Positions 7,177-55,990 of a stretch of 64,000 nucleotides of DNA are shown piece after piece. Position 1 is the stretch's first letter, and each line of letters opens with the position of its first letter. Position numbers and translations under genes: made by a program. The DNA is from an uncultured archaeon (GTDB taxonomy: Archaea; EX4484-52; JAADEF01): the NCBI GenBank assembly GCA_964407715.1, contig CAYOWP010000004.1, positions 9,668-73,667 on the forward strand. The letters run 5' to 3'. A model generated the notes under the pieces. The model saw only the letters and a list, made by a program, of their open reading frames with translations. It did not search any database and had not been told where the DNA came from.

Positions 7177-7205
7177 AAATTTTTATATGTTAACCTAATT
7201 TCAAA

Positions 7206-7500
7206 ACTTGGTTAAGAGGAAAGATAAGCTCGTAGGAGGTCATCCAACAGCAGCTAACCTTTTTGATTGGTTAGCTGCTCCTAAAGCCCTTGTGTTAGCG
7301 ATCTCCTCGCGTTAACCAGTTATTTTTAAAAAATGGTTAAGGGGAAAATGTCCTCTTAATGAAGCACATTGCAGCAGCTAACCTCAGAAAGCGGTTAGGA
7401 AGCTGCTAACCTCTTTGAGTGGTTAGCTGCTTCAAAACCTTTGGGAAAAGTGGTATCTTCGCATTAACCAATCTCAGATCAGTTGCATTTCGGGGTGTAA
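7206..7500. repeat. Repeat locus R1: GTTAACC hairpin plus AGCAGCTAACC/GGTTAGCTGCT hairpin family
   Basis: Perfect hairpin CAGCAGCTAACC-N9-GGTTAGCTGCTC at 7248-7280; CGCGTTAACCA...TGGTTAAGGGG hairpin at 7308-7344; further GGTTAGGAAGCTGCTAACC copies. Confidence 0.8.
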
Positions 7501-10023: not shown

Positions 10024-10031
10024 ACATCACC

Positions 10032-10694: not shown

Positions 10695-10718
10695 AGAACA
10701 TCACCTCAAAATCTCATG

Positions 10719-11141: not shown

Positions 11142-11156
11142 TTTACACCACCATCT

Positions 11157-14345: not shown

Positions 14346-14395
14346 TTTAAAAATTTTTAGATTTTATCACCCAACAAGAGACTTCCTCATCAAAA

Positions 14396-14945
14396 GCCTT
14401 TGGAAAGTGATTTTCCCTGCGTTAACCAGTTATTTTGATAAATATGGTTAACGGGAGAGAGAGCCATTTGAGAGAGCTGAGTATAGTATGATAGCCTTTG
14501 AAAGCAGTTAGGAAGCAACTAACCTTTAAAAGCGGTTAGCTGCTCTAAAATCTTTGTGTTAGTGATATCTTCCCGTTAACCAATTTTTTATTTTTAAAAA
14601 TGGTTAAGGGGAAGTATACCTTCTCAAAGGATATCTTACAGCAGCTAACCATTTCAAAGCAGTTAGGAAGCAGCTAACCTTTTAGGGAAGGTTACCATAC
14701 TCCTAAGCCTTTGTGTTAGTGATATCTTCGCGTTAACCAATTTTTTATTTTTAAAAATGGTTAAGGGGAAAAATACCTCATCAAAGAATATCAAACAGCA
14801 GCTAACCTTAAATTGGGTTACTATGCTGTAAAACCTTAGTTATAGTGATATCTTCGCGTTAACCAGTTATATTCAAATAAAAAACATGGTTAAATGGAAA
14901 ACCTGACCATCTGAAAAACCATGGTAGAGCAGCTACCCAAAATAA
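14396..14945. repeat. Repeat locus R2a: ~3.5 tandem ~150-bp units of the GTTAACC-hairpin / GCTGCTAACC family
   Basis: Each unit starts GATATCTTC[C/G]CGTTAACCA...TGGTTAAGGGGAA, followed by CAGCAGCTAACC-N9-(G)GTTAGGAAGCAGCTAACC. Confidence 0.8.
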
Positions 14946-15001
14946 ATGGGTTAAGAAGCGAAAAGTTTCTGAAAAGGATAGTATGGAGCAACATGGATAG
15001 T

Positions 15002-15156
15002 GGCATTATCCAATCATTCTCCATTTGTTAAGCGGAAGAGTAACCTCTTAAAGAACCGCATTAAAGTAGCGAACCTTATAGAGCTGATGCGATTACCGCT
15101 ATAAGTGCTATTTGCGCGTTAAATTTCCGCTTAACAATAAAAAATTTTGGACAAAG
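15002..15156. mobile_element. MITE-like element (short copy) with terminal inverted repeats
   Basis: 5' GGCATTATCCAATCATTC...TTGTTAAGCGGAAGA and 3' TTTCCGCTTAACAATAAAAAATTTTGGACAAAG are inverted complements; shares the AAGAACCGCATTAAAGTAGCGAACC core with copies at 38.1, 44.1 and 45.7 kb. Confidence 0.65.
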
Positions 15157-15243
15157 CCCTCAATGCCTAATGAAGAGTTAATATTTTAAATTTTTTGGTT
15201 TATATCTCTTATTTTTATTTTTATTTTAAGTTTATGGAGGGAG

Positions 15244-15486
15244 ATGATGAGGTTTGAGAAAATATCTCGATTAACAGAGATTTGTATTAAAGAGGGAGGT
15301 AACTTTTATGTTATCTTGAATGGCAATGTTTATTGTGGGATAGCTCGTACTCGCGGTCCTGTAGAATGTCCATATTGCTGTAAAGAAAAAGACATAAATG
15401 GGTTATATAAGTGTACATATGAAGGATATACAAAAATTAGGGATATGATTCTCTACAAAAAACCGCTTAATGATAAGAAATTATAA
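15244..15486 (+). CDS. small cysteine-containing hypothetical protein
   Basis: 80 aa; CGIARTRGPVECPYCC...C pattern suggests a metal-binding knuckle. Confidence 0.25.
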   Translation: MMRFEKISRLTEICIKEGGNFYVILNGNVYCGIARTRGPVECPYCCKEKDINGLYKCTYEGYTKIRDMILYKKPLNDKKL

Positions 15487-17062: not shown

Positions 17063-17154
17063 TTGAAGTACTTTTTAATAGAAGTAACCAAAAATTTTAA
17101 ATATTTTGATATATCAATATATTTATATACATTTGTTTATCTAAAGGTGATTAA

Positions 17155-17907
17155 ATGTCTCAACGAGTTATAGGGATTTTGTCAGGTAAAGGAGGAGTGG
17201 GAAAAACTGTCACATCTCTAAATCTTGGGTTGGCATTACATCAATTCGGAGAAGATGTTGTTGTAATAGATGCAGATATTACAGCTTCAAATTTAGGGTT
17301 GCATTTAGGAATGTACAATTTTCCGCATGGTCTTCAAGATGTATTAAATAATGATCTCGACATCGAAAAGGCAATGTATATGCATCATACAGGATTACGA
17401 GTAATACCAGCATCATTAGATATCTCATCTTTAAAGGCAGATATCTCACAATTAAAGAAGGTAGTGAAGGAAATCCCTGCAGAAATAATACTTATAGATG
17501 CTCCACCAGGCATAAATGAAGATGTATTGGCTGTGTTAAATGCATCAAAAGAAATTATGATCGTAACAAATCCTGACATTCCGACAGTTACAAATGCCAT
17601 GAAGATTTCACGGGTATCAGAAAAATATAAAAGGCATGTTTCTGGTGTGATAGTTAATAGATACCTTGGAAATGCATATGAATTAAATATTGATGAGATT
17701 GAAATGATGATAGAATCACAAATATATGGTGTAGTACCTGAAGATCCTTATGTGAGAGAAAGTATTTATCAAAAAATTCCAATTGTGGCGTATAAACCTT
17801 TTAGTCCTGCATCAATAGCATTTAAACAGATTGCGGCTAAGATAATAGGTAAGGTATATAAACTCCCAAGATTTTATAGAATAAAAAGATTATTGGGATT
17901 AATATGA
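17155..17907 (+). CDS. MinD/ParA-family P-loop ATPase
   Basis: Deviant Walker A GKGGVGKT; DAPPG motif; 250 aa; stop overlaps the start of the next gene (ATGA). Confidence 0.8.
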   Translation: MSQRVIGILSGKGGVGKTVTSLNLGLALHQFGEDVVVIDADITASNLGLHLGMYNFPHGLQDVLNNDLDIEKAMYMHHTGLRVIPASLDISSLKADISQLKKVVKEIPAEIILIDAPPGINEDVLAVLNASKEIMIVTNPDIPTVTNAMKISRVSEKYKRHVSGVIVNRYLGNAYELNIDEIEMMIESQIYGVVPEDPYVRESIYQKIPIVAYKPFSPASIAFKQIAAKIIGKVYKLPRFYRIKRLLGLI

Positions 17908-20285
17908 GAAAAAGAAAATTTTTGTTGTGTAGTGTGGTGGTATTCTTACTTTTGATATCTCTTAAAAATGTTTATGCTCAAATTGAAGTTATTAGTTATG
18001 ATAAGTATGTTATCTTTTCTGATGAGGAATTAAAAACAGTAAGTGTAAGCTTTGCATGTCAAAAAGATAATGCTTCTGTAACTGATGCAATTGCAAAATA
18101 TGATAATTTCGGGTTTGTAAAAGCCACTTATAATGGAGCATACTATACAGCAAACCTTCAGATATTCAATATGCTAGGTCTTTATGGTAATAAGACGATA
18201 ACTATTTCATGTATCTATTCTGATTCAACAACAGAAACCAAGTATATACATATTATAGTAGATAAAATATATTTAGAAATTAAGGAACCAACATTCTCTG
18301 ACCCAGTTGAGGTATATAATGGAGAATATGTTACCTCATTAAAAGTTATGCTCAGTTCTTATTATCTTAATACTGATCCCTATTCATTACAAAATCTAAG
18401 AGTTGTGCTAAAATCGTCTGAGAGCACATATACTATAGAAAGTCCTTTAATATCATACAATGGGAATGAGATGAACATAATATTTTATGTTCCATATGAT
18501 ATAAAAGAAGGATTATATGATATCTATGTTAAAGCAGCATACTCGTACTATGGAACAAATTTACAATTAGAATCCAAATCACCAAGAAGTTTAAATGTAC
18601 GCTCACCTATAAAGATAGAAATGCTTTCTCCTTCCAAAGGAAGTACAATAAAGCTGGATACATCAAAAAGAATTTCTATATCCTTTAAAGTATATGAAAA
18701 AGATGAAGAATTAATTGATCTCAGTGATACCAACTTCAAATTTAAACTTGGAGATAAGGAATTAGAATATGAGGTAAAATATGATGAGCAAAATGCAAGA
18801 TATGTTGCAACAGTATATTTAGTGAAAGGTAATGATGGTAACAAAACACAAGATACTTTATTCATTTTCATTAAAGATTATAAAGATTATCCTGAACTTA
18901 AATTCCCTATTTTGAATGTGGAGTATGTTGTATCACTTAAAGGATCAACATTAATAAAAGGAGGTAAGATTATAAATGCGAAATTTATACTTGAAGGAAA
19001 CAATAAAGTATATGAGTTTTCCACAGATAATAAAGGTAATTATAATATTCTTGTGCCAAAAGGAACATATAATGTAACATTAATATTAAATAATATAGAC
19101 AAAATTATATTTTATGATGTTGAAATAGATAATACCTTAGACTCTTTTATAAAGATAGATTATCCTTCAATATCTAATGATAAATTCAGAATTATAAAAT
19201 CTCTTGTGGTTGAGATATCTTCTCCATATTCATATGCAAAATCAGAGATTTATTATGATGACACTAAAATAGTTGATGAAAGAAACATTATTGCATTATA
19301 TTGTGATTATTGGAATTTTGGTTTACAGAAATGTAATGGTGATTTAAAGAAATATGATTATAATATAAATATAATATCTAATAGGATATATCTTGACAAA
19401 TTTGAAGGTAATGTCATTATCTCAGAAAAAAAGAGGCTCTATATCACATTAGATGTGGAAAAAAAAGATTATTATGTAGGTGATGAAATAAAAGTCACAG
19501 GATATATAAAGGATTTTGATGGCAATCCACAAAGTGGTATCGAGATAAAATATAAGATAAAAGGAACAGATATAGAAGGAGATGTGAATACAGATGAAAA
19601 TGGCAAGTTTGAGATATCTTTCATTGCGCCTAATATAAATAGAAGATATGAGAAAAAGGAATTAGTAGTGTTCATTCCATCTTCAGAAGTTAAGGCAGAA
19701 AATAAAAGCATAGTGTTTAACATTGAAAAAAGAGTACGATTAGTTGGTTATGTTGAAGAAATAGTAGATGTGTACAAAGGAGTAGAAACAGAGATACCTA
19801 TAACAATATCAAATGAGGGAGATCTTGATTTAACAGATATAGAGATAAGATTGGCAGGTATCAAAGAGGATTGGTATACTTTCACACCTTCCTTTATCGA
19901 AACTTTAAAAGCAGGAGACAAAGTCAAAGTTAGATTAAGAGTAAAAATTACATGTGGTAATGAATGTAAAGATTATTACTTTGTTAATATGCGCATAAAA
20001 AGCAAAGAAGCAACAGAGGATGTAAGTTTTACATTGAGGGTATTGGATAAAGCCAACACCACTGCTACGCTATCAAGTAAGCAAACTCAGGAAAAAAGCA
20101 TATTTTCAGGAATCTCAGATGCCATAACAGGAAAAATAACAAGCATAAATATAAATAGCAGCAATGTCAATTATTATATAATCATTGCATTTTTCATAGC
20201 AGCATTTATAATAATAACCATAAAGAAAAGGTCGCGCAGAAGATCAAGGATAAGCAGAGCAATTATAATAAAAAAGAATTTTTAA
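17904..20285 (+). CDS. large secreted surface protein (signal peptide, C-terminal TM and basic tail)
   Basis: 793 aa; N-terminal signal LLCSVVVFLLLISLKNVYAQ; many NxS/T sequons; C-terminal IIIAFFIAAFIIITIKKRSRRRSR membrane anchor. Confidence 0.5.
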   Translation: MRKRKFLLCSVVVFLLLISLKNVYAQIEVISYDKYVIFSDEELKTVSVSFACQKDNASVTDAIAKYDNFGFVKATYNGAYYTANLQIFNMLGLYGNKTITISCIYSDSTTETKYIHIIVDKIYLEIKEPTFSDPVEVYNGEYVTSLKVMLSSYYLNTDPYSLQNLRVVLKSSESTYTIESPLISYNGNEMNIIFYVPYDIKEGLYDIYVKAAYSYYGTNLQLESKSPRSLNVRSPIKIEMLSPSKGSTIKLDTSKRISISFKVYEKDEELIDLSDTNFKFKLGDKELEYEVKYDEQNARYVATVYLVKGNDGNKTQDTLFIFIKDYKDYPELKFPILNVEYVVSLKGSTLIKGGKIINAKFILEGNNKVYEFSTDNKGNYNILVPKGTYNVTLILNNIDKIIFYDVEIDNTLDSFIKIDYPSISNDKFRIIKSLVVEISSPYSYAKSEIYYDDTKIVDERNIIALYCDYWNFGLQKCNGDLKKYDYNINIISNRIYLDKFEGNVIISEKKRLYITLDVEKKDYYVGDEIKVTGYIKDFDGNPQSGIEIKYKIKGTDIEGDVNTDENGKFEISFIAPNINRRYEKKELVVFIPSSEVKAENKSIVFNIEKRVRLVGYVEEIVDVYKGVETEIPITISNEGDLDLTDIEIRLAGIKEDWYTFTPSFIETLKAGDKVKVRLRVKITCGNECKDYYFVNMRIKSKEATEDVSFTLRVLDKANTTATLSSKQTQEKSIFSGISDAITGKITSININSSNVNYYIIIAFFIAAFIIITIKKRSRRRSRISRAIIIKKNF

Positions 20286-20297
20286 AAGTGATGTCAT

Positions 20298-23200
20298 ATG
20301 AGAACATGGAAAATCATGTTTTTGTTATTGTTTTCCCTTTATTTTATTGTATCTGAAATACATGCTTATAAAATTTATTTTGAAGTTCAAACATATGATA
20401 GGAAATATAACTTCTCAGATAAAGTAGTCCTTGATGACTCAATAAATAACAAAATTTATTTTTATTTAAGGCAAGATGATGGAGAAGACAATATAACAAA
20501 TATAACATTTTATCTTCCTGGAGATGTTACCTTCACAGGTAAAAATGATACTTCTCTTGGTGATGCAGCAGATTTTGGTGTAAATTCTTCCAATCAATCA
20601 ATTGGGCAGTGGAATATAACAGATAGCACCCAACTAAAAAATAGTTTTGGAAGTTTTTGGATGGAGGTTAATGTTCCTATAGATAAGGAAAAGGAATATA
20701 CTTTCCAATTAAATATCACATATAAAAATAAAAGCGGGATCTTACGTAATTTCACATTGTGGGTTGATACTCTTTCTCCAAGGGATGTCAAAATAACAAA
20801 GGAAAATGATTATGAGTATTATAATATATCTGAAAACTTGATAGTGGAAGTCTCTTCCTATGATGCTTTATGGAACAAAACTATTCTTGCTGTAGTGTTT
20901 AAGAACTCAACAAATTATCCTTATTTACCTGAGAACACTACCTATTTCATATATGAAAATTCACATATAGAAAACTTTACATATGAGGTTCCAAGTAAGA
21001 TAATTATCCTTAAGGATATCATAAATGGCACTACGTATAATGTTCTTGTTAAAAAAATAGAGACATCATCAAACACATATTATATCATGTTAGGTAATTT
21101 CACTAATACCATAAATAATGAATGGTTTAATGGAGGTTTTGTGTATGATAAAGAAAATATCTCTCAATTTCTTTATATTATTAATTTTGACAAAGATCTT
21201 CTTATTAATAAAAGCGGAATATACTATGTGAATGGCACTTCATTGCTTTTGGATTCTCACCAATTTGATTATCTCAATGTTAATCTAAGTTATGGTTTTG
21301 TCAATTTAAGTGGATTGCAAATAGCATATAGTAATCTATCTTTTAATGTCTCATATGTTATTGAAAATACAACTCTTGTATTTAAACCTCTTTATGATGG
21401 AAATTACTCTGTATTTGTAGAGGTTTGGGATTTGTTCTCAAACACTTCCTCAGAAATATCATATGAAATAAATAACTCGCCTTTAGTGTCACCACCTACA
21501 GTATCTTTGGATATAGTTAACGGAACTAGGATTTTGGTAAATAAACCATTTCATTTTACTTTTACATTGGATGATGAGGCTCAAAATTCATCATGCTCCT
21601 TATATCTCAATAATAGTTTAGAAGATTCCATATCTAATATAGGATCAGGAAAATATTCCCTTTCCTCTACACCAACACAAGCGAAATATTATGTGGTTAA
21701 TATCACATGCATAAATGACTTTAAATTAAAAGGCGCTGATTTTAGAGAAATCTATGTTGAGGACAAACCAGATCTCAACTTGTCTTTAGTATCAATTTCA
21801 CCATCTGCATATGGATTAAATGATGAGATAAATATCTCATATAATATAAGCAATTTGGGCTCCTCAAATGCAAATCAAGTTAATATCACATTCAAAGTAT
21901 GCTCTGATTCCTCATGTACAAATATCTTACACGAAAAGTATACAGAAATCAATACGCTTTCCGCAGATGAGTATAAGATAGATTGGTTCAATTATACCAT
22001 AAAGGATTCCTCTACTCTCTATATAAAAATGGATGCTTATTCCAATGATACTGATTTTGATTATTCAAATCAAAACCTATCTCTTATTTTATCTCCAACA
22101 ATTTCTATAAGTTATGCTGTATCAGAATCAACAGAGGATTTAAAACCTGGAAGTGATCTAACTATTTATGTAAATGTAGTTCACTATGATGGAACATATA
22201 TCAGCGAGCTTAATGAAAATAACTTCACTATTTATGATTATTGGCATTATATAGGGAAGTATAGAAATAAAACCAAAAATTTATATCTCATCAATAATTT
22301 TGGTAATGGGACATATAAATTTGCTTATACCTTGCCTAATATTTCCTCTAATGAGAAGTATTATGAGTTCGGTGCACATAAATTAATCTTAGAAGTTAGA
22401 ACAAATAAATATAAGAAAATCAATACAACTGAATTGAACTATGATATACAGGCTCCATTTGTTGAGCTTTATTTCAGTGATGTCCCTTCTAGTATGAAAG
22501 AAGGTGATAAAAAGACAGCATATATCAAAGCCAAAAACCTTGGAGATATGACGATTAACACAATTAAAATAACAATAAAAACATCCTCAACCTCAAAACT
22601 CACATTTAACGGAGATTCCTCTTATTCCTGCAATATAACAGGATTAACTCCTGGAGATACTGAGTCATGTAGTTTTACCTTAAAGGCAGAAGATACGGGA
22701 GATGTGGAGATTTATGTAAGTTCATCTTCAAGTGATACATATTTCATCTTGGATAAGGCATACTCTAAGGATTATCCAGGTTTAGGAGGTAAAATATATT
22801 TCTATTCATATCCTGAAAAGGATATAGAAATAGAAGAAGAGCAAGAAAGTACAACACAGGAATCCTCAAGTGATGAAACAGAATCATCAGAGGAGACAGA
22901 AGAGAATGAAGAAACATCACAAACATCTACAACAGAAGAAAGCAATAAAGTGAGTGAGATCAAAATTGAAATCCCTGAGAATGAATATTCATTTTTAATT
23001 AATGAGTCTAAAACAATTGAAATTAAAATAAAAAATATAGGAAACAAAACCGCATCTTCCTTATCCTTAGGATTAGAGTATGATAAGGAGAACCTAAATA
23101 TTACTCATGACTTCAAAAAATCCTCTTTGGATCCTGGAAAAGAATATGTATTTCATTTGAATGTCTCATCTCCTACTCAACGAGTCGGAAAATATACAAT

Positions 23201-23696
23201 AGCTATAACAGTTGTTTATGATAGCAATAAAGTAGCGGATGGGACATTAACCATTACTCTTTTACCTACAGAAAAAAAGAAAAAAGAGATAGAAGATATG
23301 TTAGAAAATATGAAATCTGAGATTGAAGAGTTGGATGTGCCAGAGGATATGAAAGCAGTATATGATCAAACAAAAAGATTTATTGAAGAAGCAGAGAATA
23401 AGATAAAAAATGGAGATTATGTATCCGCATATGCTTTATTAGAAAAAGCTCAAAAGAACATAAATGCAATAAAAATGTCTGCAACTTCAAAGGGAAAAAG
23501 CAAATGGTGGATATGGGTAATAGTAATACTTATTATATTGGGAATCATAGGAGGAGTGGCTTATTATTTGCTTACACCTCCAACATCAACATATCATCCT
23601 GAAAAAGGATATTCATTCAATCCAAAGGTATATGAGGAACAGAGAGCAAATTATATAAAGAGATTAAAAGAATCCCTTCAAAGAAAATTGAGTTAG
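20298..23696 (+). CDS. giant surface glycoprotein with CARDB-like domains
   Basis: 1132 aa; signal peptide; CARDB-like segments (DLNLSLVSISPSAYGLNDEINISYNISNLGSSNANQVNITFKV; EGDKKTAYIKAKNLGDMTINTIKITIK); acidic S/T/E linker; C-terminal coiled coil and TM. Confidence 0.55.
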   Translation: MRTWKIMFLLLFSLYFIVSEIHAYKIYFEVQTYDRKYNFSDKVVLDDSINNKIYFYLRQDDGEDNITNITFYLPGDVTFTGKNDTSLGDAADFGVNSSNQSIGQWNITDSTQLKNSFGSFWMEVNVPIDKEKEYTFQLNITYKNKSGILRNFTLWVDTLSPRDVKITKENDYEYYNISENLIVEVSSYDALWNKTILAVVFKNSTNYPYLPENTTYFIYENSHIENFTYEVPSKIIILKDIINGTTYNVLVKKIETSSNTYYIMLGNFTNTINNEWFNGGFVYDKENISQFLYIINFDKDLLINKSGIYYVNGTSLLLDSHQFDYLNVNLSYGFVNLSGLQIAYSNLSFNVSYVIENTTLVFKPLYDGNYSVFVEVWDLFSNTSSEISYEINNSPLVSPPTVSLDIVNGTRILVNKPFHFTFTLDDEAQNSSCSLYLNNSLEDSISNIGSGKYSLSSTPTQAKYYVVNITCINDFKLKGADFREIYVEDKPDLNLSLVSISPSAYGLNDEINISYNISNLGSSNANQVNITFKVCSDSSCTNILHEKYTEINTLSADEYKIDWFNYTIKDSSTLYIKMDAYSNDTDFDYSNQNLSLILSPTISISYAVSESTEDLKPGSDLTIYVNVVHYDGTYISELNENNFTIYDYWHYIGKYRNKTKNLYLINNFGNGTYKFAYTLPNISSNEKYYEFGAHKLILEVRTNKYKKINTTELNYDIQAPFVELYFSDVPSSMKEGDKKTAYIKAKNLGDMTINTIKITIKTSSTSKLTFNGDSSYSCNITGLTPGDTESCSFTLKAEDTGDVEIYVSSSSSDTYFILDKAYSKDYPGLGGKIYFYSYPEKDIEIEEEQESTTQESSSDETESSEETEENEETSQTSTTEESNKVSEIKIEIPENEYSFLINESKTIEIKIKNIGNKTASSLSLGLEYDKENLNITHDFKKSSLDPGKEYVFHLNVSSPTQRVGKYTIAITVVYDSNKVADGTLTITLLPTEKKKKEIEDMLENMKSEIEELDVPEDMKAVYDQTKRFIEEAENKIKNGDYVSAYALLEKAQKNINAIKMSATSKGKSKWWIWVIVILIILGIIGGVAYYLLTPPTSTYHPEKGYSFNPKVYEEQRANYIKRLKESLQRKLS

Positions 23697-23715
23697 AATA
23701 TAGGGAGATGAAACC

Positions 23716-24624
23716 ATGATAGAATATATTCTTTATATTATTGGGATATTCCTATCAACACTTGCTCTATATTTCACAGGCATTTTAAATGTTGATTTTT
23801 ATGATATTTCTTCTCTTCTTTTTATTTATAAATATGTTGATTTAAAGATGGTATTGGCATTTGTCTTAATCTATGGATTATCGCTATCTTTTCTTTATTG
23901 GATAAAAATAAAAAATGAGAATCCAAAACTTATGTTCTTAGCAAGTTTTGTTTCTTCTTTTCCATTTTTGATGCTTTCTTATTTTGTTTTTGATATTGGA
24001 TGGTTTATATTGCTTATTGTGTGTACATTGGGCATATCATATATCATTAATATGAATGTATTACGTGAAGAAAAAATATATAAAGTTATACCTTATGACA
24101 AACTCTCAGTTAAATTATTTAAGAATGTTTTATCTTTATTTTTTATTATTTTTGCTTTATTCCTTGCATTTACATCATCATCAAGGGATAATTCTATATA
24201 CATAAATAATCTAACATATCACATTGGAAAGATAAATCTAACAGATATAACCAATTTAGAGAACAAAATTATATCTCTTCAAAGAAATTATGCTATAAAC
24301 ATAGCAAATGCAACCACTTTCATATTAATGAATGAAATATTTAATGATAACTCGCTCTCATATAACACCAAGGTCCAGTGTTTAAGAGCAATAGACTCAA
24401 ATCGAGAAAATGTGTTAGATAAGATTGATAGAGAAATATCAAGGAATGCTTCAAACAATATTGGGCAATTTGAAGATATCTCTGGGGTTGTTGAGATATC
24501 AATAAAAGCATATCCTATCATAATAGGACTTTATGTATATGTGTTATTGGGTTTCACTTTCTTTTTTATATCTTTTGCCTCTCAGGTATTAGTTAAAATA
24601 TATAAGTTAGTATATCATAAATAA
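23716..24624 (+). CDS. polytopic membrane protein of unknown function
   Basis: 302 aa; ~6 TM helices and a central Asn-rich soluble loop. Confidence 0.35.
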   Translation: MIEYILYIIGIFLSTLALYFTGILNVDFYDISSLLFIYKYVDLKMVLAFVLIYGLSLSFLYWIKIKNENPKLMFLASFVSSFPFLMLSYFVFDIGWFILLIVCTLGISYIINMNVLREEKIYKVIPYDKLSVKLFKNVLSLFFIIFALFLAFTSSSRDNSIYINNLTYHIGKINLTDITNLENKIISLQRNYAINIANATTFILMNEIFNDNSLSYNTKVQCLRAIDSNRENVLDKIDREISRNASNNIGQFEDISGVVEISIKAYPIIIGLYVYVLLGFTFFFISFASQVLVKIYKLVYHK

Positions 24625-24630
24625 AAGTAT

Positions 24631-25122
24631 ATGATGCCCTCAACAGAATGTTTAAGTGATGAAGAAAAGATATCCTATTATCTAAGCCACGTAAAAAAAC
24701 CTGTGTTATTATTTATTGGATTTCCTTTTTCAGAGATAAAAAAATTTGAATCTCATGCAAAGGTAATATATCTCATTGGAGATTTAAAAGAGAAAAAATC
24801 TTGCAAAAAAATAAGTGCATTTTCCTCTATGGATGATTTTATCAATAATTTTACATCTCTTGATGCAAAGATAACACATATATTTGCTTATTATATTGGA
24901 TGGGATCAAATAAAAAACCAACTTCCTCCAAAATTTACTCTTAATAACTCAAAACTCTATCTCTTTATAAAAGTGCCATTTGAGAAATGGAAATCTTTTA
25001 TTGATAAGGATAGATATTTGATTGAGAATACCTTAAGTGATTATAACCTCAAATTTGATGATATTATCTCATCAAATAAAGAAAATTATTTTTATGGTGT
25101 TTTTGCAAAGGTGAAAGGATGA
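24631..25122 (+). CDS. hypothetical cytoplasmic protein
   Basis: 163-aa ORF; 4-nt overlap with the next gene. Confidence 0.3.
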   Translation: MMPSTECLSDEEKISYYLSHVKKPVLLFIGFPFSEIKKFESHAKVIYLIGDLKEKKSCKKISAFSSMDDFINNFTSLDAKITHIFAYYIGWDQIKNQLPPKFTLNNSKLYLFIKVPFEKWKSFIDKDRYLIENTLSDYNLKFDDIISSNKENYFYGVFAKVKG

Positions 25123-25799
25123 ACTTTAAAGGAATGTCTCCTTTATTATCTGGAGTGCTTTACATGACAATCATAGTTACAGGTATTTTGATAGTGATGG
25201 CATCCATTTATCCAAAAATAATGGATTTAAAGGAATACTCAAAAATAACAAATACAATAAAATGTGCTAGGAACATGGATTATGCTTTGTCTCTTTTAGA
25301 AAAATCATCTCTTAGAGGAGAACAGGAAATAGAATGTAAAATAAAAAATGCAAAGTTGTCAATTAAAAATGACACTATGCTTTTTATATTTCCACATATT
25401 GATTATTTATCTCTTGACATATTCAAAAATGAAGAATATACGTTAAATGAAGGTGTTTATGTCTATGATAATGGAAGTTATTTTCTTATGGGAAACAAAT
25501 ACTTAGAAGTTAATTTTTCAAAGATATATGCCAATAACATGATAAATATCTCGCAAATTATAAATAACATATATTATAAAAAGACTTCTAAAAATATTGA
25601 TGGCTCCTCTTTATATTTCATATTAAATGATGATCCCTCTATAAGCATAGGTAGAGGATATACGATAGCTGAGCGCTCTGGAGCATATCTAAAATATGGA
25701 AAAATAATTGCTCATGTGGAAAATGATAACGCTAAATATAATTTAACCTTTATTCTATATCCCTCGGCAGATTATATTATTATCTCTGTGGAGAGTTAA
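25119..25799 (+). CDS. candidate archaeal type IV pilin-like protein (class III signal peptide)
   Basis: MNFKG|MSPLLSGVLYMTIIVTGILIVMAS: short basic N-terminus ending KG, followed by a hydrophobic helix, the layout of prepilin peptidase (FlaK/PibD/EppA) substrates. Confidence 0.4.
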   Translation: MNFKGMSPLLSGVLYMTIIVTGILIVMASIYPKIMDLKEYSKITNTIKCARNMDYALSLLEKSSLRGEQEIECKIKNAKLSIKNDTMLFIFPHIDYLSLDIFKNEEYTLNEGVYVYDNGSYFLMGNKYLEVNFSKIYANNMINISQIINNIYYKKTSKNIDGSSLYFILNDDPSISIGRGYTIAERSGAYLKYGKIIAHVENDNAKYNLTFILYPSADYIIISVES

Positions 25800-25834
25800 A
25801 AGTATATATTTAACAAATATCTAATAAAATATTT

Positions 25835-27055
25835 ATGATGTTAAAAAGAAAAGGAACAGAATCTTTTTTTTATGTGTTGTTAGCAGGTTTGGGAATTTTT
25901 ATACTGATAGCTATAATCTCATTAAGTATTGATTATGTGGAAGTAGAGCATCCAGAGGAAGAGATTCCATATCTCCTTAATAAAAAAGGCATAGCCGATA
26001 CAATCAAAGAGAACAAGATATATTATTTTGATAAGTTTCTATTTAAATCCTTAGGTAATGTAGAGGAGAATAAAAGGACAATTTATATTGGAGATAAAAA
26101 CATAGGAAATGTCCTGGCATATGGTGTAGTTAGAGAGAAACCCAAAATAGAGATATATAATGGATTGTTTGGTAAGAAAAATGAAATAATTTATTTTAGC
26201 ACATATAATGCAAAAAAGGTTAGAATCTCTTTTGTTGTTAACAGAACAAACAGATATGGAAGATTGATCCTAAAATTTAATGGAAAAGAAATATTCAGGA
26301 ACCTAACATATGAAGGAGAGAGAATATTGGTTGAGATTGAAAAAGGAATAAAAAATAAAAATGTTTTGGAAATTATGTGTGAATCATCTCTACCAAAAAT
26401 ATGGGCTCCAACAAAGTATGAGATAACAAACTTAAGAATTGAAGCATTGGATTATATATCAAAGGATGCTTACATAGAATTTGAGATTCTTCCAGAAGAA
26501 TATCAAGGATTACGCTATGTTGAAATCAAATTTAATGTATTGGATACAAATGAATATGCTCCTCTCTCTTTTATAGTAAATGGAAAAAAGGTATTTGAGG
26601 ATGTATTTGATGCTGGTGCAGAGCCATATAGAGTATGGTTATATAGAAAGGACAATCTTAAACCAGGAATAAATGTTCTAAGAATGGAAACATATAACTC
26701 ATCATATTATGACCTCCTAAATGTAGAGATTAACATATATTATATAGGAAATGCACATGTATATGTGGATGAGAGTAATTTCAATATAAATCCTGATGAT
26801 TATGAGTTTATAGAAAAGAATAAGGATATTTTAGAGGGAGTTATCGAAATCAACACAAGAAGCATAAATCTTGATAAGGGCATAGTTTTCTATATTAATG
26901 GTGCTCGATACACTATCAGCAACTTAAGGAGTTATGCATCAAATTATCTCACATTTGATGTTGATCTCCTTAGAAAAGGTGTAAATTATCTGAGATGGGA
27001 AACACAAGGAAATTATGAGATAAAAGATATCAAGATAGGAGTTAGGAAAAAGTGA
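25835..27055 (+). CDS. secreted/pilin-like protein with class III-like signal
   Basis: MMLKRKG|TESFFYVLLAGLGIFILIAII N-terminus; 406 aa, remainder beta-rich. Confidence 0.35.
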   Translation: MMLKRKGTESFFYVLLAGLGIFILIAIISLSIDYVEVEHPEEEIPYLLNKKGIADTIKENKIYYFDKFLFKSLGNVEENKRTIYIGDKNIGNVLAYGVVREKPKIEIYNGLFGKKNEIIYFSTYNAKKVRISFVVNRTNRYGRLILKFNGKEIFRNLTYEGERILVEIEKGIKNKNVLEIMCESSLPKIWAPTKYEITNLRIEALDYISKDAYIEFEILPEEYQGLRYVEIKFNVLDTNEYAPLSFIVNGKKVFEDVFDAGAEPYRVWLYRKDNLKPGINVLRMETYNSSYYDLLNVEINIYYIGNAHVYVDESNFNINPDDYEFIEKNKDILEGVIEINTRSINLDKGIVFYINGARYTISNLRSYASNYLTFDVDLLRKGVNYLRWETQGNYEIKDIKIGVRKK

Positions 27056-27061
27056 TATGCT

Positions 27062-27481
27062 ATGAGTGAAAAAAAACTTACATGTCCTGTTGAAGGATGC
27101 AACAATGAAGTATATCTTGAGATGATAGATGGTGAATTATATTGGATTGATAAGATGAATCCATTACAACATAGAGGTAAAGTAATGGAATTACCTTCTC
27201 CAAAAAGGGAGCTTTTTTTGGGATATGCATATGAAAAGGGAATATTAAAAAAGGATAGCGAAAAAAAAGATCAAATAATACAATACACAACTCAGAATAT
27301 GAAAGTCCCCGTGGATAGCAAACAACACATCCCATATGATGCAGCGCTACTTTTTCTTATAGGCATCATATATATAATCTTCTCCTTTATGCCATTTAAT
27401 GAGTTTTCAAGCTCTCTTTTATATTTATTAGGTGGTTTCTTTATGATATTAGGCATTGTGGAGTATTTTTCACTTTATTAG
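27062..27481 (+). CDS. hypothetical protein with Cys knuckle and C-terminal two-TM anchor
   Basis: 139 aa; CPVEGCNNE N-terminus; C-terminal LLFLIGIIYIIFSF and LLGGFFMILGIV hydrophobic helices. Confidence 0.3.
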   Translation: MSEKKLTCPVEGCNNEVYLEMIDGELYWIDKMNPLQHRGKVMELPSPKRELFLGYAYEKGILKKDSEKKDQIIQYTTQNMKVPVDSKQHIPYDAALLFLIGIIYIIFSFMPFNEFSSSLLYLLGGFFMILGIVEYFSLY

Positions 27482-27489
27482 ATTAAAGT

Positions 27490-29337
27490 TTGGTGAATAG
27501 CATGATTAACATACTTTTTATAACCACGCTTTTTTTGGGATGGATGCTAAAATATATTGGATATGATACTCATTATTTTGTACTTTTAATCTTGTTCATA
27601 ATTGCTTATGGTATATTCTATATAGGTATAAAAGAAAACAAACAAAAAAGATTTTTGGTTTATGTTTTGTCTTCAAGTTTTATAATTGTTGTGTTGTGGG
27701 TATTGGAGTACTTTGAAATCTTATCTCTATCTATATATGACTCGCTCTTGTTATCTTTTTCTATATATTTGGCTGGAAGTATTGTTTCAAAACAAAAAAA
27801 TGAGATAATAACAATTTTTTTAACAATCATTTTCATAGGTGCTTTTATCTTTTATGTGCCAAACATATCCTTGGCAGAGATATATGGGGGAGATTTAACA
27901 CATCTTGATAACACCTTACAGAAGCTCCCTTTTATTGAAAGGGTAAAGGAAGGTTACAACATATTGATTCAGAGCTTAAAAAATATGACATATTATGAGG
28001 ATCTTGATTATCCTTCTGGTGCATCTAAGGAAAAGGAAAAAATAAGAGAATCTGTGAAAAAAGAGATAGATGATATTGTACATCTTGATATTTCCCCTTC
28101 CTCAATATCTCAAAAAGGAGATACGAAAAGCATTGTCTCGCTCTCTGCAAATAATCTCTTAAAAGATAGATATGCGAGAAATGTATATGTTGGTATGGAT
28201 GTTGGAAGTGAGGGAAGAATGTATGGTCTTGATGTGAATAGTGAAGAAGGATTCTGCTATGAAAATAATAAGAATTGCTATAGTGCAATAGACACAATAC
28301 CTCCACAAGGATTTGCACCTGCTCTATTCGAGATCATGCTTCCCCCATGTAAGAATGATTTTAATGCAGAAATTTATACAAAATATATCACTACAGCAAT
28401 TGGTGAAAAGGTAATATTTGTAGATAAGGGAGAATATAGAGATACTATATCATCAGAAGGTCCATTAACATTGGATATTGAACTTCTTCCAAAGAGACTT
28501 ACATATCCAGGAGAGGGAGACATGAAATTCATTATCAATATCTACTCATTGCTTAATAGCAATCAGTTTGAGAATCAACATGCATATTACAAATATTTAT
28601 TTCTTTCTATTCCAAAAGAGATAAATCTTGAAAGGGATTCAACATATTGTCCTTATCAAAAATATAGAGAGGAAGGAGGAAATACAATATATCTTTTTGA
28701 AATCAGAGATGAACTTCAATGCTTTGATAAAAATACTATTGGAGTGTTAACATGTAAAGCACAAATACCTGAAGAGAGGGTTGATGAGTTTATAAAAGGA
28801 TATAAGACATTTAGAGTTTATGTACCATATATATTTTATGGATCTTTTCCTTATAAAATAGAAACAATAAGTGATAAAGAATGTGAGAATGTCTTTAAGA
28901 AAAACACATTTGGATTGAGTGATGTAGAGTTTTTAAATAAAAGAGGATATTTAATCTCCTTCAGAAAAACATATAATGAAAAGGAAACAATAAACTTAGA
29001 AGATTTAGTAAGCGAGATGATAGATTTTTGTCATAATATCTTTGAAGGATCTTTTTCTGATCATGAATGTGCTTATGTTGTATTAAAAGGATATAAAGGA
29101 AAATTAAACATAGATTCATCAAGGTTCTCAAAGAGTTCAAAAGATAAGGATAAAGTTGTGTTACAAAAAGATAGTTCCTTAGATGATATCTTATCTAACT
29201 TGGAAAAGATATATGGAAATGAAATGGAAAAAGATGTGGAAATAATAAACAATTATGATGGTGAAGGAGATCTAAGTATAGATGTAAAATATAAATTTGA
29301 TTGTAGAGGTGGTAAAATAGTGGTTATCTTTGAATGA
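27490..29337 (+). CDS. membrane protein with large extracytoplasmic domain
   Basis: 615 aa; ~6 N-terminal TM helices then a ~450-aa soluble domain rich in Cys/Tyr. Confidence 0.35.
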   Translation: MVNSMINILFITTLFLGWMLKYIGYDTHYFVLLILFIIAYGIFYIGIKENKQKRFLVYVLSSSFIIVVLWVLEYFEILSLSIYDSLLLSFSIYLAGSIVSKQKNEIITIFLTIIFIGAFIFYVPNISLAEIYGGDLTHLDNTLQKLPFIERVKEGYNILIQSLKNMTYYEDLDYPSGASKEKEKIRESVKKEIDDIVHLDISPSSISQKGDTKSIVSLSANNLLKDRYARNVYVGMDVGSEGRMYGLDVNSEEGFCYENNKNCYSAIDTIPPQGFAPALFEIMLPPCKNDFNAEIYTKYITTAIGEKVIFVDKGEYRDTISSEGPLTLDIELLPKRLTYPGEGDMKFIINIYSLLNSNQFENQHAYYKYLFLSIPKEINLERDSTYCPYQKYREEGGNTIYLFEIRDELQCFDKNTIGVLTCKAQIPEERVDEFIKGYKTFRVYVPYIFYGSFPYKIETISDKECENVFKKNTFGLSDVEFLNKRGYLISFRKTYNEKETINLEDLVSEMIDFCHNIFEGSFSDHECAYVVLKGYKGKLNIDSSRFSKSSKDKDKVVLQKDSSLDDILSNLEKIYGNEMEKDVEIINNYDGEGDLSIDVKYKFDCRGGKIVVIFE

Positions 29338-29352
29338 ATTTGGAGGTGAGTT

Positions 29353-30369
29353 ATGAAAAAAAACTATAAGAGTTTATCGGTAATAAGCATATTGTTTTAT
29401 CTTGCATTATTATCTGTGATAGTAGTCATGCTTGTTATTGCTACAAAAAAGCATGTCTCATTTTTTGGAAATTTCTTTGGTGAAACCTCTGAACAATCCG
29501 CGGCTTATAATAGATGTCTCACTTATTGCCTTTCTGCATCCCCAAAAGACAAGTGCAAATATGGAGATAAAGAGATTTTATGTGCAGCATTTTTAAGCGT
29601 TTTTGGTTCTTCCTTTGTTTTTGATGATGAAATATTTAATGAAGGAAGTTTAACAGCATTAGGCATCAAAAAGGAAAACTTAGTAAGTAATGTTGGAAGT
29701 TCTGAAGAATACAAATGTAAGATTTATGATTTCTTAAATATAGAAAAAAGAACCTTAGGCAAAGGTATAGGTATCCCATCTTTGGATGATATAAGAAAGA
29801 GTGTTGAGAGAACCATAGAGAAATATGGCTCAGCTATAGAGGAGATATCAGAAAACGAGGGTATTGATCCTTGTATTCTTGTGAGCACAGTAGCAATTGA
29901 GAGTTCTGGGGGAGTTGTTAAAAGAACAAAATATATCTCTTGTGGAATTACAATGATTACCCCACAAAATTTGAGATCATTGGGATATTGTAATGCAAAA
30001 GAAAGTGATAAAGAATGTTGTGAAAAGATAGCTAAGAATGATAGAGCTGCCATTGAGTTAAGCGTTAAACTTTTTAAAAGGTTTGAGAATAACGTGAATC
30101 AATACATCTTTAAGAACAACTATCCTATAGATGAAAATGGAGTTTTCAAGTTGGCATATCTTTTCGCATATTATAATGGTGGTGGAAGTTGCATGGGTCC
30201 ATCTAAAAGTTGCAGTTTTACATCTTGTAAAAACTTAAAGGAAGACTTAAGAGGATTTGATAGCATTCCAATATTCATGTGTGCCTATAAACCTGGAGGT
30301 TGCATCGAAACTCAAGCGCATGTTACTAAATCTCTCTATGCATATAAAATATGTAAGGAGACGTGGTAG
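29353..30369 (+). CDS. Cys-rich secreted protein, possible lysozyme-like (lytic transglycosylase-like) fold
   Basis: 338 aa; signal/TM anchor; >20 Cys; AIESSGG...CGITMITPQN loosely matches the ES...GxMQxxP motif of SLT domains. Confidence 0.3.
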   Translation: MKKNYKSLSVISILFYLALLSVIVVMLVIATKKHVSFFGNFFGETSEQSAAYNRCLTYCLSASPKDKCKYGDKEILCAAFLSVFGSSFVFDDEIFNEGSLTALGIKKENLVSNVGSSEEYKCKIYDFLNIEKRTLGKGIGIPSLDDIRKSVERTIEKYGSAIEEISENEGIDPCILVSTVAIESSGGVVKRTKYISCGITMITPQNLRSLGYCNAKESDKECCEKIAKNDRAAIELSVKLFKRFENNVNQYIFKNNYPIDENGVFKLAYLFAYYNGGGSCMGPSKSCSFTSCKNLKEDLRGFDSIPIFMCAYKPGGCIETQAHVTKSLYAYKICKETW

Positions 30370-30415: not shown

Positions 30416-31045
30416 TCGCCTGTTAACCATAATTTGTTGAAAATGGTTAACGGGAAGAAATCGCTCTTCCAAAGCTTTGCGGCGGGATATCCTTTTTTGA
30501 AGGTTAGGTGCTTCACAACCGCTTTGAAATGTTAGCTGCTCTTATGTGTTTTCTTAGAGGGTTAGGTTTCCCGTTAACCAATTTTTTATTGAGAAGATTA
30601 TGGTTAACGGGAAGAAATCGCTATCACAAAAGTTTTTTTGAGTGCGCTATCCTCTTTTAAAAGGTTATCTGCTTCCTAACCGGTTTATTAGGTTAGCTGC
30701 TCTTATGTGCTTCATTAAGGTGACATCTTCCCGTTAACCAATTTTTTATTGAGAAGATTATGGTTAACGGGAAGAAATCGCTATCACTAAGGCTTCGCAG
30801 CATGCTAACCTTTATCAAGGGTTAGCTGCTTCCAAACCGCTTTAAAAGGTTAGCTGCTCTTATGTGTTTTCTTAGAGGGTTAGGTTTCCCGTTAACCATA
30901 TTTTTATTGAGAAGATTATGGTTAACGGGAAGAAATCGCTCTTCCAAAGCTTTGCAGCATGCTAACCTTTATCAAGGGTTATCTGCTTCCAAACCGCTCT
31001 GAAAGGTTAGCTGCTGTAATATGCTTCATTAAGATGACCTTTACC
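30416..31045. repeat. Repeat locus R3: ~4 tandem ~160-bp units
   Basis: Perfect hairpin CCCGTTAACCA-N20-TGGTTAACGGG at 30570-30611, 30730-30771 and 30888-30929 (period 158-160 bp); each followed by AGCATGCTAACC-N9-GGTTAGCTGCT and further GGTTAGCTGCTCTTATGTG half-sites. Confidence 0.85.
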
Positions 31046-37889: not shown

Positions 37890-38064
37890 AAATAAAATGA
37901 AGTTTTAGTGTATGCATATCTTTTACTATCCACAATTCTATGCACAATGATGCACTGAAATGACTATCATAATGAAAAAATATAATTGTTGTTCCCTCTA
38001 AAGTCGAACATCAAAAGATAAGAGATATCGCGGAAAGAGTTGAGGAGGTGTTAAGTAAATGATA

Positions 38065-38306
38065 GCATTGTCCAATAATTCTCTATTAATAAAATTTTGT
38101 TAAGCGGAAACATAATCTATCAAAGAAGCGCATTAGAGCAGCAAACATTATAGAGCTAATGCGATTGTAAGAGCAAATTTTCTCGTTAACAAATCCTTAT
38201 TAAAAAATTATTGGACAATTTGTTAATAGGAGGCATAGCCATATTCAACGGGTTAACTGCTCTAATGCGCTTCTGCGAGAGGTTATGTTTCTGCTTTACA
38301 ATGCCG
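38065..38306. mobile_element. MITE-like element copy with an inverted partial duplicate
   Basis: 5' TIR GCATTGTCCAATAATTCTCTATTAATAAAATTTTGTTAAGCGGAAAC; 3' TTCTCGTTAACAAATCCTTATTAAAAAATTATTGGACAAT; then an inverted fragment GGTTAACTGCTCTAATGCGCTTCT, the reverse complement of the AGAAGCGCATTAGAGCAGC core. Confidence 0.7.
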
Positions 38307-38362
38307 TAAATGATGTTAATGAAGTTTAAATTTAAAAGTTTTTCTAAAAAGAATATTTCCTT

Positions 38363-44148: not shown

Positions 44149-44522
44149 GCATTGTCCAATAATTCTTTGTTGTTAAGCGGAAAAGTAACCTCTTAAAGAA
44201 GCGCATTAAAGTAGCGAACCTTGTAGAGCTAATGCGATTTAAAAGGTTAGCTGCTTTATTGCCTTTTGAGAAGGTACATCTCTAACCTCTCGTTAAAGAT
44301 TAGCTGCTCTGATGTGTGTTGTTGATGTGGTATGCTTCCTGTTAACCATGTTTTATTAAAAACATAGTTAACGAGAAAATATCTTCATTCACTCATGGAA
44401 TGCAGCATGTTAATCTTTCGTTAAATGTTAGTTGCTTCATAACCATTATAAAGAGTTAGCCGCTATAAGTGCTATTTGCGCGTTAAATTTCCGCTTAACA
44501 ATAAAGAATTATTGGACAATAC
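44149..44522. mobile_element. MITE-like composite element (374 bp) bounded by ~35-bp terminal inverted repeats and carrying hairpin-repeat cargo
   Basis: 5' GCATTGTCCAATAATTCTTTGTTGTTAAGCGGAAAAG; 3' TTTCCGCTTAACAATAAAGAATTATTGGACAATAC (reverse complement); the interior has GGTTAGCTGCT, GATTAGCTGCTC and a long GTTAACCATGTTTTATTAAAAACATAGTTAAC hairpin. Confidence 0.75.
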
Positions 44523-45656: not shown

Positions 45657-45784
45657 GGCATTGTCCAATAATTCCCTATTAACAAAATTTGTTAAGCGGA
45701 AAAATAGCCTTTTAAAGAAGCGCATCAGAGCAGCAAAGCTTATTGAGCTAAGCGATTGTAGGAGCAAATTTTCTCGTTAACAAA
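45657..45784. repeat. Truncated MITE-like copy (5' TIR plus core only)
   Basis: GGCATTGTCCAATAATTCCCTATTAACAAAATTTGTTAAGCGGAAAAA...AAGAAGCGCATCAGAGCAGCAAAG...TTCTCGTTAACAAAAC; lacks the distal TTATTGGACAAT. Confidence 0.65.
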
Positions 45785-45831
45785 ACAAAAAATAATAAAA
45801 TAAAAAAAGATTTTTCTTTTAAAATTTGCGG

Positions 45832-55628: not shown

Positions 55629-55710
55629 TATCTTTTAAAAAATTACGGTTTATCAATATCTCTATATATATGATTAGGATACATACCTTGTTCCTCCGCA
55701 CACTGCTCCA

Positions 55711-55990
55711 AATGGTTAACGGGAAGCATAACCTCTTCTCAAGGCATATCACAGCAGGTAACCTCTCCGAGCGTTTAGGAAGCAGCTACCCTGAAGAAAG
55801 GTTAGCATGCTTTTATGTGTTTGGTATTGTGATATCTGCGCGTTAACCAATTTTTATTTATTCAAAATAAATAAAAATTCGTTATCAGAAAACATACCAT
55901 CTCAAAAACCACATTGGAGCAGCTAATATTTTATTTTGGTTAGGTGCTATAAAACCTTGCAAAAGATGAGATCTTCGCGTTAACCATAAC
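55711..55990. repeat. Repeat locus R7: degenerate copies of the GTTAACC / GCTAACC hairpin family upstream of tRNA-Glu
   Basis: TGGTTAACGGGAAG, CACAGCAGGTAACC, TTTAGGAAGCAGCTACCC; CGCGTTAACCAA-TTTTTATTTATTcaaaATAAATAAAAA long palindrome; GATCTTCGCGTTAACCA. Confidence 0.7.

Follow-up and report, generated by a model that had tools for sequence, protein, structure and literature searches.

What kind of element is the tandem repeat of about 160 bp at positions 30416-31045, and how are the similar sequences found elsewhere on the same DNA related to it? We analyzed these repeats in the window, that is, the whole stretch of 64,000 nucleotides taken from an uncultured archaeon. In the window, TRF reported an array with a period of 157 bp, 3.6 copies and 82% matches at 30443-31015; cutting the array at hairpin A, one of the two palindromes of the repeat, yields four units of 151-160 bp over 30416-31040, in agreement with the three to four units originally predicted between 30.4 and 31.0 kb. 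TRF also found a second array of period 157 at 14497-14807. Two hairpin motifs are far more frequent than chance allows: CCCGTTAACCA, with at most one mismatch, occurs 20 times (0.19 expected) and GGTTAGCTGCT 25 times (0.45 expected), an enrichment of about 50-100-fold, with 0 shuffles reaching as high a count for either. All together, the repeats amount to 2,736 bp, or 4.3% of the window, close to the 2.5 kb first estimated, and every locus is intergenic, as had been proposed. No ORF of 80 aa or more lies within the window copies. The units of the 30.4 kb array are also present in two independent assemblies of this organism (contigs L009 and L010, from ENA ERZ27248328 and Logan SRR7051321), where the array is identical to that of the window and the contigs of both assemblies end within it. 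Since the array is common to two independent assemblies, it is not an assembly artefact.

The original prediction described one composite unit recurring at seven loci. The repeats are real, but they fall into two related families rather than one. Fam1 is the unit with hairpins A and B, 126-160 bp long, found at 7.19-7.47, 14.39-14.99, 30.42-31.05, 44.24-44.46 and 55.70-55.99 kb. Fam2 is a homologous but different element, found at 15.00-15.16, 38.06-38.31, 44.15-44.52 and 45.66-45.79 kb; the loci at 38.1 and 45.7 kb are thus Fam2, and those at 15.0 and 44.1 kb are partly so. The features are as follows, in window coordinates:

7190..7475, minus strand: Fam1 array of about two units (nhmmer E 1e-24) with the only perfect hairpin B (7249-7279), flanked by the 3′ ends of a NOL1/NOP2/Sun-family RNA m5C methyltransferase gene and of tRNA-Arg
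14385..14990, minus strand: Fam1 array of about four units (TRF 14497-14807, nhmmer) in a divergent intergenic region, adjoining the Fam2 copy that starts at 15003
15003..15157, plus strand: putative Fam2 MITE, 155-bp form, with TIR GCATTATCCAATCATT / AAATTTTGGACAAAGC and subterminal repeats TTGTTAAGCGGAA / TTCCGCTTAACAA; no recognisable TSD (5/9)
30416..31045, plus strand: main Fam1 tandem array (TRF), four units of 151-160 bp with an ABAB higher-order pattern; no TIR or TSD at its ends
30567..30614, no strand assigned: example of hairpin A, CTTCCCGTTAACCA, a 20-nt A+T loop and TGGTTAACGGGAAG; further copies in the main array at 30727-30774 and 30885-30932, and a degenerate copy at 30416-30457
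38064..38305, plus strand: putative Fam2 MITE, 'dimeric' form of about 240 bp, flanked by the 9-bp perfect direct repeat GTAAATGAT at 38055-38063 and 38306-38314; right TIR internally deleted
44149..44522, plus strand: putative Fam2 MITE of 374 bp, with terminal and subterminal inverted repeats of 45 nt (89% complementary); TSD 8/9
44240..44459, plus strand: about 1.7 Fam1 units inside the preceding element (alignment; nhmmer Fam1 matches at 44237-44473)
45658..45787, plus strand: truncated Fam2 copy, left TIR and 5′ module only
55700..55990, minus strand: Fam1 array of about two units, beginning at an A right arm and ending at an A left arm, 55 bp upstream of tRNA-Glu and a cas operon

The Fam1 unit is built in the order hairpin A, linker, hairpin B, second linker, with a period of 126-133 bp. 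Hairpin A consists of CTTCCCGTTAACCA, an A+T-rich loop of 13-24 nt and TGGTTAACGGGAAG; the first linker opens with AWATCGCT; hairpin B consists of GCAGCATGCTAACC, a loop of about 9 nt and GGTTAGCTGCT. Long units (156-160 bp, or 151-160 bp in the main array) carry an extra B-type module, B2, whose left arm is weak and whose right arm, GGTTAGCTGCT, is conserved, the order in the main array being B1, then B2, then linker. A core, TAACC...GGTTA, is common to all three hairpins. The perfect palindrome with a 20-nt spacer that had been announced for hairpin A was recovered in three exact copies (CCCGTTAACCA-N20-TGGTTAACGGG at 30570, 30730 and 30888), although its stem measures 14 bp and not 11. Hairpin B departs further from its first description, in which each unit held a perfect AGCAGCTAACC-N9-GGTTAGCTGCT: the copy at 7249-7279 is the sole perfect one. 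In the 30.4 kb array, two units have AGCATGCTAACC as the left arm of hairpin B, which leaves a 1-nt bulge, and the remaining two have a degenerate arm; GGTTAGCTGCTCTTATGTG occurs exactly at 30691 and 30848. Nor are the units near-identical, as had been thought: on average, units share 74% identity within an array and 66% between arrays, with a maximum of 84%.

To see what is conserved, we aligned 24 units, picked by their match to hairpin A; hairpin B played no part in the picking. The conservation of hairpin A is therefore inflated. Its core pairs 8-43 to 12-39 (TTAAC with GTTAA) are invariant in 24/24 units and its two loop-side pairs are retained in 23/24, while its outer CCCG/CGGG part shows uncompensated mismatches. 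The right arm of hairpin B is at least 90% conserved and the left arm about 70-90%. The stretches conserved as sequence are TTAACCA, TGGTTAAC, ATCGCT and GGTTAGCTGCT. Degenerate copies with decayed cores also occur. The GGTTAAC and GGTTAGCTGCT cores are conserved as sequence, not as pairs.

This distinction bears on the proposal that both stems are kept despite variation in their loops, and hence that selection acts on structure, with a structured RNA family as one outcome. The unit does fold far better than its shuffles (z -5.41), and a mild excess of G-U over A-C mismatches (44 vs. 23) was seen in one orientation. However, the opposite strand folds equally well (z -5.27), as any DNA palindrome must. 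Across the 24 units, the named stems were paired in 86.6% of cells, which is the mean of 500 shuffles, and the covariation score was 0.092 vs. a shuffle mean of 0.100. RNAalifold gave a covariation term of +0.07, with hairpin A alone kept in the consensus structure and hairpin B left out. Most substitutions in the stems disrupt pairing: 11/24 units have lost pair 7-44 of helix A and 13/24 pair 85-108 of helix B, the non-Watson-Crick cells are mainly non-isosteric (C-C, G-G), and no pair of helix B shows changes on both sides. The covariance check across copies that had been suggested thus turned up no compensatory changes, and selection on the paired form, as first argued, does not follow from these stems. 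At the gathering score, Rfam returned five tRNAs and no repeat match for the whole window; with E values up to 1, the array gave sub-threshold, chance-level matches (E 0.04-0.5). The G+C content of the repeats (33-41%) is close to that of the genome (32%) and well below that of its tRNAs (59-66%); Klein and colleagues are said to have described, in 2002, stable RNAs that are G+C-rich in A+T-rich thermophiles. The copies also lie in both orientations relative to adjoining genes. On this evidence, a family of structured non-coding RNA genes, or of cis-regulatory RNA structures, would be a very unlikely account of the repeats.

We propose instead that the key to the repeats lies in Fam2. An exact hairpin scan of the JGI metagenomes yielded four more contigs, all in one metagenome, Ga0190367 (L021-L025). 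They have a similar GC content and many more arrays of both families, and we assume that they come from the same or a very close organism. Window and contigs, ~113 kb in all, contain 7 or more copies of Fam2 and 13 or more repeat loci. Fam2 copies have TIRs of 16-23 bp, GCATTGTCCAATAATTC, which in complete copies read GCATTGTCCAATAATT(C) and (G)AATTATTGGACAATGC; a repeat tool gave inverted-repeat arms of 23, 17 and 45 nt with 91, 94 and 89% complementarity, respectively. Inside the TIRs, TTGTTAAGCGGAA and TTCCGCTTAACAA are versions of the hairpin A arms, and the interior beyond these arms holds B-type GCTAACC...GGTTAGCTGCT modules. The 9-mers flanking complete Fam2 or hybrid copies match at 7-9 of 9 positions in five of six cases:

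Window 38064-38305: TSD GTAAATGAT / GTAAATGAT, 9/9
Window 44149-44522: TSD ATTTTAAAA / TTTTTAAAA, 8/9
L022 13770-13963: TSD TTGTGAGAG / TTCTGAGAG, 8/9
L025 6834-7082: TSD TATTATCTG / TATTATCCG, 8/9
L022 11151-11395: TSD TTCATGTAA / TTCATGTCT, 7/9
Window 15003-15157: flanks ACATGGATA / CAATGCCTA, 5/9

Among 20,000 random site pairs drawn from the window with the same offsets allowed, such matches are rare (P(9) = 0.0004, P(≥8) = 0.006, P(≥7) = 0.044). MITEs are defined as small, non-coding, A+T-rich sequences with TIRs and TSDs, present in many copies (PMC2229807, PMC10969869). The transposable form here, Fam2 plus hybrids, is 155-374 bp long, non-coding, multicopy and A+T-rich. Judged by its structure, Fam2 is thus a putative MITE, and the same structure suggests that the elements are, or have been, mobile. 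No transposase domain was detected in the ~80 ORFs scanned in the window and L021-L025 (~113 kb), and the 264-aa and 190-aa orphan ORFs that adjoin repeats show nothing transposase-like.

How does the array unit relate to this element? A copy on L022 (13770-13963) has Fam2 TIRs and a TSD of 8/9, with a Fam1 unit as its interior (nhmmer E 1.4e-12). In the window, the element at 44149-44522 and the 155-bp copy at 15003-15157 align collinearly, save for 220 bp (44240-44459) that only the former has and that are the ~1.7 Fam1 units listed above; no TSD was seen at the inner junctions of this stretch. In addition, a Fam2 profile matches the Fam1 arrays with E values of 1e-6 to 1e-8. Copies bounded by TIRs and TSDs thus enclose Fam1 units, which suggests that the array unit is an internal module of the MITE superfamily. 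We also considered the Fam1 unit as a MITE of its own, with the hairpin A arms as TIRs, and rejected this since there is no TSD at array ends.

The arrays have a history of their own. A 34-mer, CCGCTATAAGTGCTATTTGCGCGTTAAATTTCCG, is exact in three elements that are otherwise 66-77% identical, which implies that copies have recombined or undergone gene conversion. In ungapped comparison, neighbouring units share 62-86% identity. In the main array, the ABAB pattern reflects a copy 318 bp away that is 86% identical vs. 62% for the adjacent unit, and an array on L024 shows a period-3 pattern. For 11 of the 24 units, the nearest relative lies in the same array, compared to about 2-3 expected by our own estimate. 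These patterns would fit local block duplication, by unequal recombination or slippage. Fam1 arrays, including 30416-31045, have neither TIR nor TSD at their ends and tend to terminate at hairpin A arms. With overall identities of at most 84%, the copies appear to be old.

We consider it reasonably probable, at roughly 65%, that the repeats are a MITE superfamily combined with tandem amplification of its internal hairpin module. On this reading, a transposase of the DDE type, provided in trans, would recognise the TIRs and make 9-bp staggered cuts. Arrays such as 30416-31045 would have arisen by local amplification of the internal module, probably through unequal recombination or replication slippage between units of 126-160 bp, possibly aided by the palindromes, and would have lost their TIRs or never had any. 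The simplest reading of the GGTTAAC and GGTTAGCTGCT cores is as protein-recognition sites, such as putative subterminal transposase-binding sites, and any host effects, such as those of hairpins and oligo-T tracts in read-through transcripts, would be incidental. This reading bears out one option of the original prediction, a replicating selfish element, through the TIRs and 9-bp TSDs of Fam2 and the two bounded elements that hold Fam1 units. It is also consistent with the abundance of the repeats on four other contigs of a single metagenome and with their distribution: copies are intergenic and in both orientations, and the genes on either side are convergent at 7.2 kb, divergent at 14.4, 44.1 and 55.7 kb and in tandem at 30.4, 38.1 and 45.7 kb. 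The mixture of junction types and orientations is at odds with a role as dedicated terminator or promoter. Several findings count against the MITE reading: no autonomous partner was seen among the ~80 ORFs scanned, the copies are old, and the Fam1 arrays, the main one included, are without TIR and TSD. Moreover, a host function would explain the well-preserved core motifs just as well.

This lack of termini on the Fam1 arrays is what a REP/BIME-like origin would account for. Palindromes would then be spread as single-strand hairpins by a Y1 transposase (RAYT or IS200-IS605-type) and kept in mosaic clusters, where they may have been recruited to terminate or stabilise transcripts, or for topology. 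The palindromes do sit in mosaic arrays with linker motifs, the arrays tend to end at hairpin arms, and stable hairpins are predicted on either strand. Nevertheless, neither a Y1 transposase nor TnpB was found in the ORFs scanned (~113 kb), and no GTAG or CGTC tag, a feature of two large REP super-families (PMC3733652), lies beside the A or B stems. The units are also 126-160 bp long rather than 20-40 bp, and their homologue Fam2, with TIRs and 9-bp TSDs, points to cut-and-paste DDE rather than Y1 chemistry, so that we regard this origin as unlikely. Slightly less probable is that the elements are maintained as arrays bound by a host protein (a chromatin protein, a regulator or a replication factor), which would recognise the GGTTAAC dyad and GGTTAGCTGCT at a phasing of about 64 bp. 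Retention of the cores without compensation, with the B right arm better kept than the left, could be explained in this way, as could the rarity of GTTAAC outside the repeats, about 3-fold below expectation (7 vs. about 21). The position of two Fam2 copies, next to an orc1/cdc6-type gene and to oapB, would also fit. However, the TSDs show that these origin-adjacent copies are insertions, and the cores do not seem to resemble the known ORB core, TCCA-N-TGGAAA. At least 13 loci in 113 kb in every intergenic context, and degenerate copies with decayed cores, are likewise difficult to reconcile with such a role. One can also imagine the two readings combined, with the dyad and GGTTAGCTGCT as putative host-protein sites and the MITE as the means by which a ready-made binding platform was spread and then locally amplified; we think this distinctly improbable. 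In one version of it, the ~245-bp Fam2 form, which has two 52-nt inverted arms around an A+T-rich centre, may be used at, or may have seeded, replication-origin-like regions: this form directly adjoins the orc1/cdc6-type gene and, on another contig, oapB, with a GTPase gene upstream of oapB.

A last possibility arises from the 55.7 kb locus. Just after tRNA-Glu, at a distance of 130 bp downstream of the array, lies the start of a type I cas operon (cas6, cas7, cas5), and one might think of a CRISPR-like array, degenerate or non-canonical in form, whose transcripts would be processed by this Cas6. GGTTA(A/G)C motifs in direct orientation do recur about every 64 bp. However, the sequences between the conserved blocks are themselves conserved across units and loci, the blocks are inverted as well as direct, and the arrays are dispersed over many loci. 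Despite the neighbouring cas operon, the unit alignment effectively refutes a CRISPR array, in line with the original view that these repeats are not CRISPR, and even the degenerate version has almost no chance of being correct.

The MITE reading places the repeats among known systems of a familiar kind. Archaeal MITEs have been described in Sulfolobus (SM1-SM4), Halobacterium and Haloquadratum (PMC10969869, PMC2229807). Like prokaryotic and archaeal MITEs in general, the present elements are small (155-374 bp for Fam2), A+T-rich, multicopy and intergenic, with TIRs and TSDs and no transposase of their own. Unlike known MITEs, they belong to a sequence family unmatched in Rfam, plasmids, phages, the GTDB representatives (exact hairpin only) and the literature searched, and their interior is a hairpin module prone to tandem repetition, which also occurs as arrays of up to 6 units without TIRs. 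The pneumococcal BOX element consists of boxA, a variable number of boxB and boxC. It is likewise modular and MITE-like, with an internal module that varies in tandem number, clustering, nesting and strong predicted hairpins. It differs in being bacterial and of unrelated sequence, whereas here the internal module alone occurs in long arrays without terminal modules. By analogy, BOX is arguably the closest functional counterpart of the modular, tandem-prone interior. The PATEs of Haloquadratum walsbyi are archaeal, non-autonomous elements derived from IS200/IS605-type elements, with palindromic ends and, as far as is known, no TSD. Fam1 arrays similarly have palindromic ends rather than TIRs, whereas the bounded elements here have 9-bp TSDs and neither tnpB nor tnpA was seen. 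BOX, RUP and SPRITE elements also cluster and insert into one another (PMC10969869). With E. coli REP and BIME (PMC3733652, PMC2229807), the repeats share intergenic mosaic clusters of extragenic palindromes and linkers; they differ in that no GTAG/CGTC tag or RAYT was found, units are 4-6 times longer, and homologous copies have TIRs and TSDs. Tag, size and the lack of a RAYT speak against membership. The palindromic repeats MJRE1-3 of Methanocaldococcus jannaschii (Suyama et al. 2005, as cited in PMC2229807) are, as far as that citing account describes them, similar in being palindromic, old, diverged extragenic repeats that make up an appreciable part of the intergenic sequence in a thermophilic archaeon with A+T-rich DNA. 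According to the same account (PMC2229807), some MJRE2 copies lie in frame inside genes, unlike all of the window repeats.

The window is part of an 82-kb contig on record at NCBI and JGI. The host is an archaeon by its genes, the window encoding archaeal housekeeping proteins such as CDC48, PCNA, fibrillarin, eIF-6, prefoldin and aminoacyl-tRNA synthetases, and the 32% GC of the genome vs. 59-66% for its tRNAs is a thermophile signature. The closest relatives of its DRG GTPase are metagenomic proteins with 77%, 71%, 64% and 63% identity, named archaea being at ~50%; by their record names, some of these relatives come from hydrothermal-deposit metagenomes. The sampled loci of these four relatives are not syntenic with the window. 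No repeats were detected in the sampled loci of relatives, 21 kb of Methanocaldococcus infernus among them, the one exception being a MITE remnant, a diverged 3′ end in L011, the relative with 77% DRG-GTPase identity. The 355-aa protein that adjoins the 38 kb MITE has best relatives of at most 43% identity. Exact hairpin A had 8 matches in the GTDB representative genomes, all in bacterial genomes or MAGs and none in archaeal representatives; as the bacterial taxa are unrelated, we took these matches as chance. Plasmid and phage collections gave no match, viral contigs gave chance matches only, and a literature search with the motif strings returned unrelated papers, none of them on archaeal repeats.

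We thus describe a previously undescribed, probable MITE superfamily of an otherwise ordinary general kind, the selfish repeat, in an uncultured A+T-rich thermophilic archaeal lineage known from metagenomes only, probably a hydrothermal-vent archaeon. No new mechanism is implied. For a compact genome, ~4% of DNA in repeats is high, and a MITE interior that turns into TIR-less tandem arrays is the point of interest in the architecture. In practical terms, the repeats account for assembly breaks at these loci in this organism (a same-species contig breaks inside the 38 kb MITE), could act as strain markers, and are best masked before non-coding RNA or CRISPR searches in this lineage. As to their surroundings, a repeat locus lies within 60 bp of four of the nine tRNA genes, compared to ~2 expected on a rough estimate; the difference is not significant and we set tRNA targeting aside. 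By eye, the DRG gene has a putative promoter and ribosome-binding site that both lie outside the array. Turning points in GC skew are found near the repeats, and we attribute them to switches in gene orientation.

Both ~245-bp copies of the MITE-type family (Fam2) that lie outside the window adjoin origin-type genes, on two contigs (L022 and L025) from the JGI metagenome Ga0190367 that we assume to come from the same or a very close organism.

Fam2 copies and adjoining genes
L022 10029-11093, minus strand: orc1/cdc6-type gene, its start facing the Fam2 copy
L022 11151-11395: Fam2 copy, occupying the gap between this gene start and Hef
L022 11399-13714: Hef, on the other side of the copy
L025 5807-6445: GTPase gene, preceding oapB and the Fam2 copy
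L025 6482-6820: oapB, between the GTPase gene and the copy
L025 6834-7082: Fam2 copy, immediately after these two genes

Target-site duplications accompany both copies, which therefore look like insertions.

A 34-nt module, CCGCTATAAGTGCTATTTGCGCGTTAAATTTCCG, is exactly conserved in three elements (window 15096-15129 and 44460-44493; L022 13896-13929), the rest of which are just 66-77% identical. Such identity suggests either that gene conversion has occurred recently or that the module is strongly constrained. The repeats also hold 23 of the 30 GTTAAC sites in the whole window, leaving 7 outside them where base composition predicts ~21. This scarcity might mean that an HpaI-type restriction site is avoided; it could also be due to chance, since the counts of other 6-bp palindromes vary from 5 to 39.

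The two largest arrays, both of the hairpin A/B unit (Fam1) and mutually opposite in orientation (14385-14990, minus strand; 30416-31045, plus strand), border a 15-kb gene cluster lying entirely on one strand (window 15244-30369, plus strand). Its genes include those for a ParA/MinD-like ATPase and a CARDB protein of 1132 aa, along with several large ORFs without a Pfam match. At 0.27-0.31, GC in the cluster falls below the 0.32-0.35 of its flanks.

In the ~113 kb of sampled DNA (the window and contigs L021-L025), four of nine tRNA genes lie no more than 60 bp from a repeat locus (window 7528 and 56045, L021 6453, L022 13980), a proximity that is not significant by a rough estimate. A type I cas operon (window 56120-62162, plus strand) begins 2 nt past tRNA-Glu; no CRISPR array was detected by TRF across the whole window.

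Genes of the cas operon (window, all plus strand)
56120-56869: Cas6
56917-58566: 549-aa protein without a Pfam match
58868-60472: GmrSD_N-domain protein, located within the operon
60523-61497: Cas7/DevR
61494-62162: Cas5

Elsewhere in the window, two neighbouring genes (4057-5723, minus strand), one for an IrrE-like protein with HTH and Peptidase_M78 domains and the other for a DUF4411 protein, look like a toxin-antitoxin-type or defence-type module. On L021, a 242-aa DUF7343-domain protein (5009-5737, minus strand) is encoded by the sole gene between Fam1 arrays 4745-4995 and 5790-6420, and on L024 a single 4,299-aa ORF (1564-14463, minus strand) adjoins a five-unit Fam1 array.
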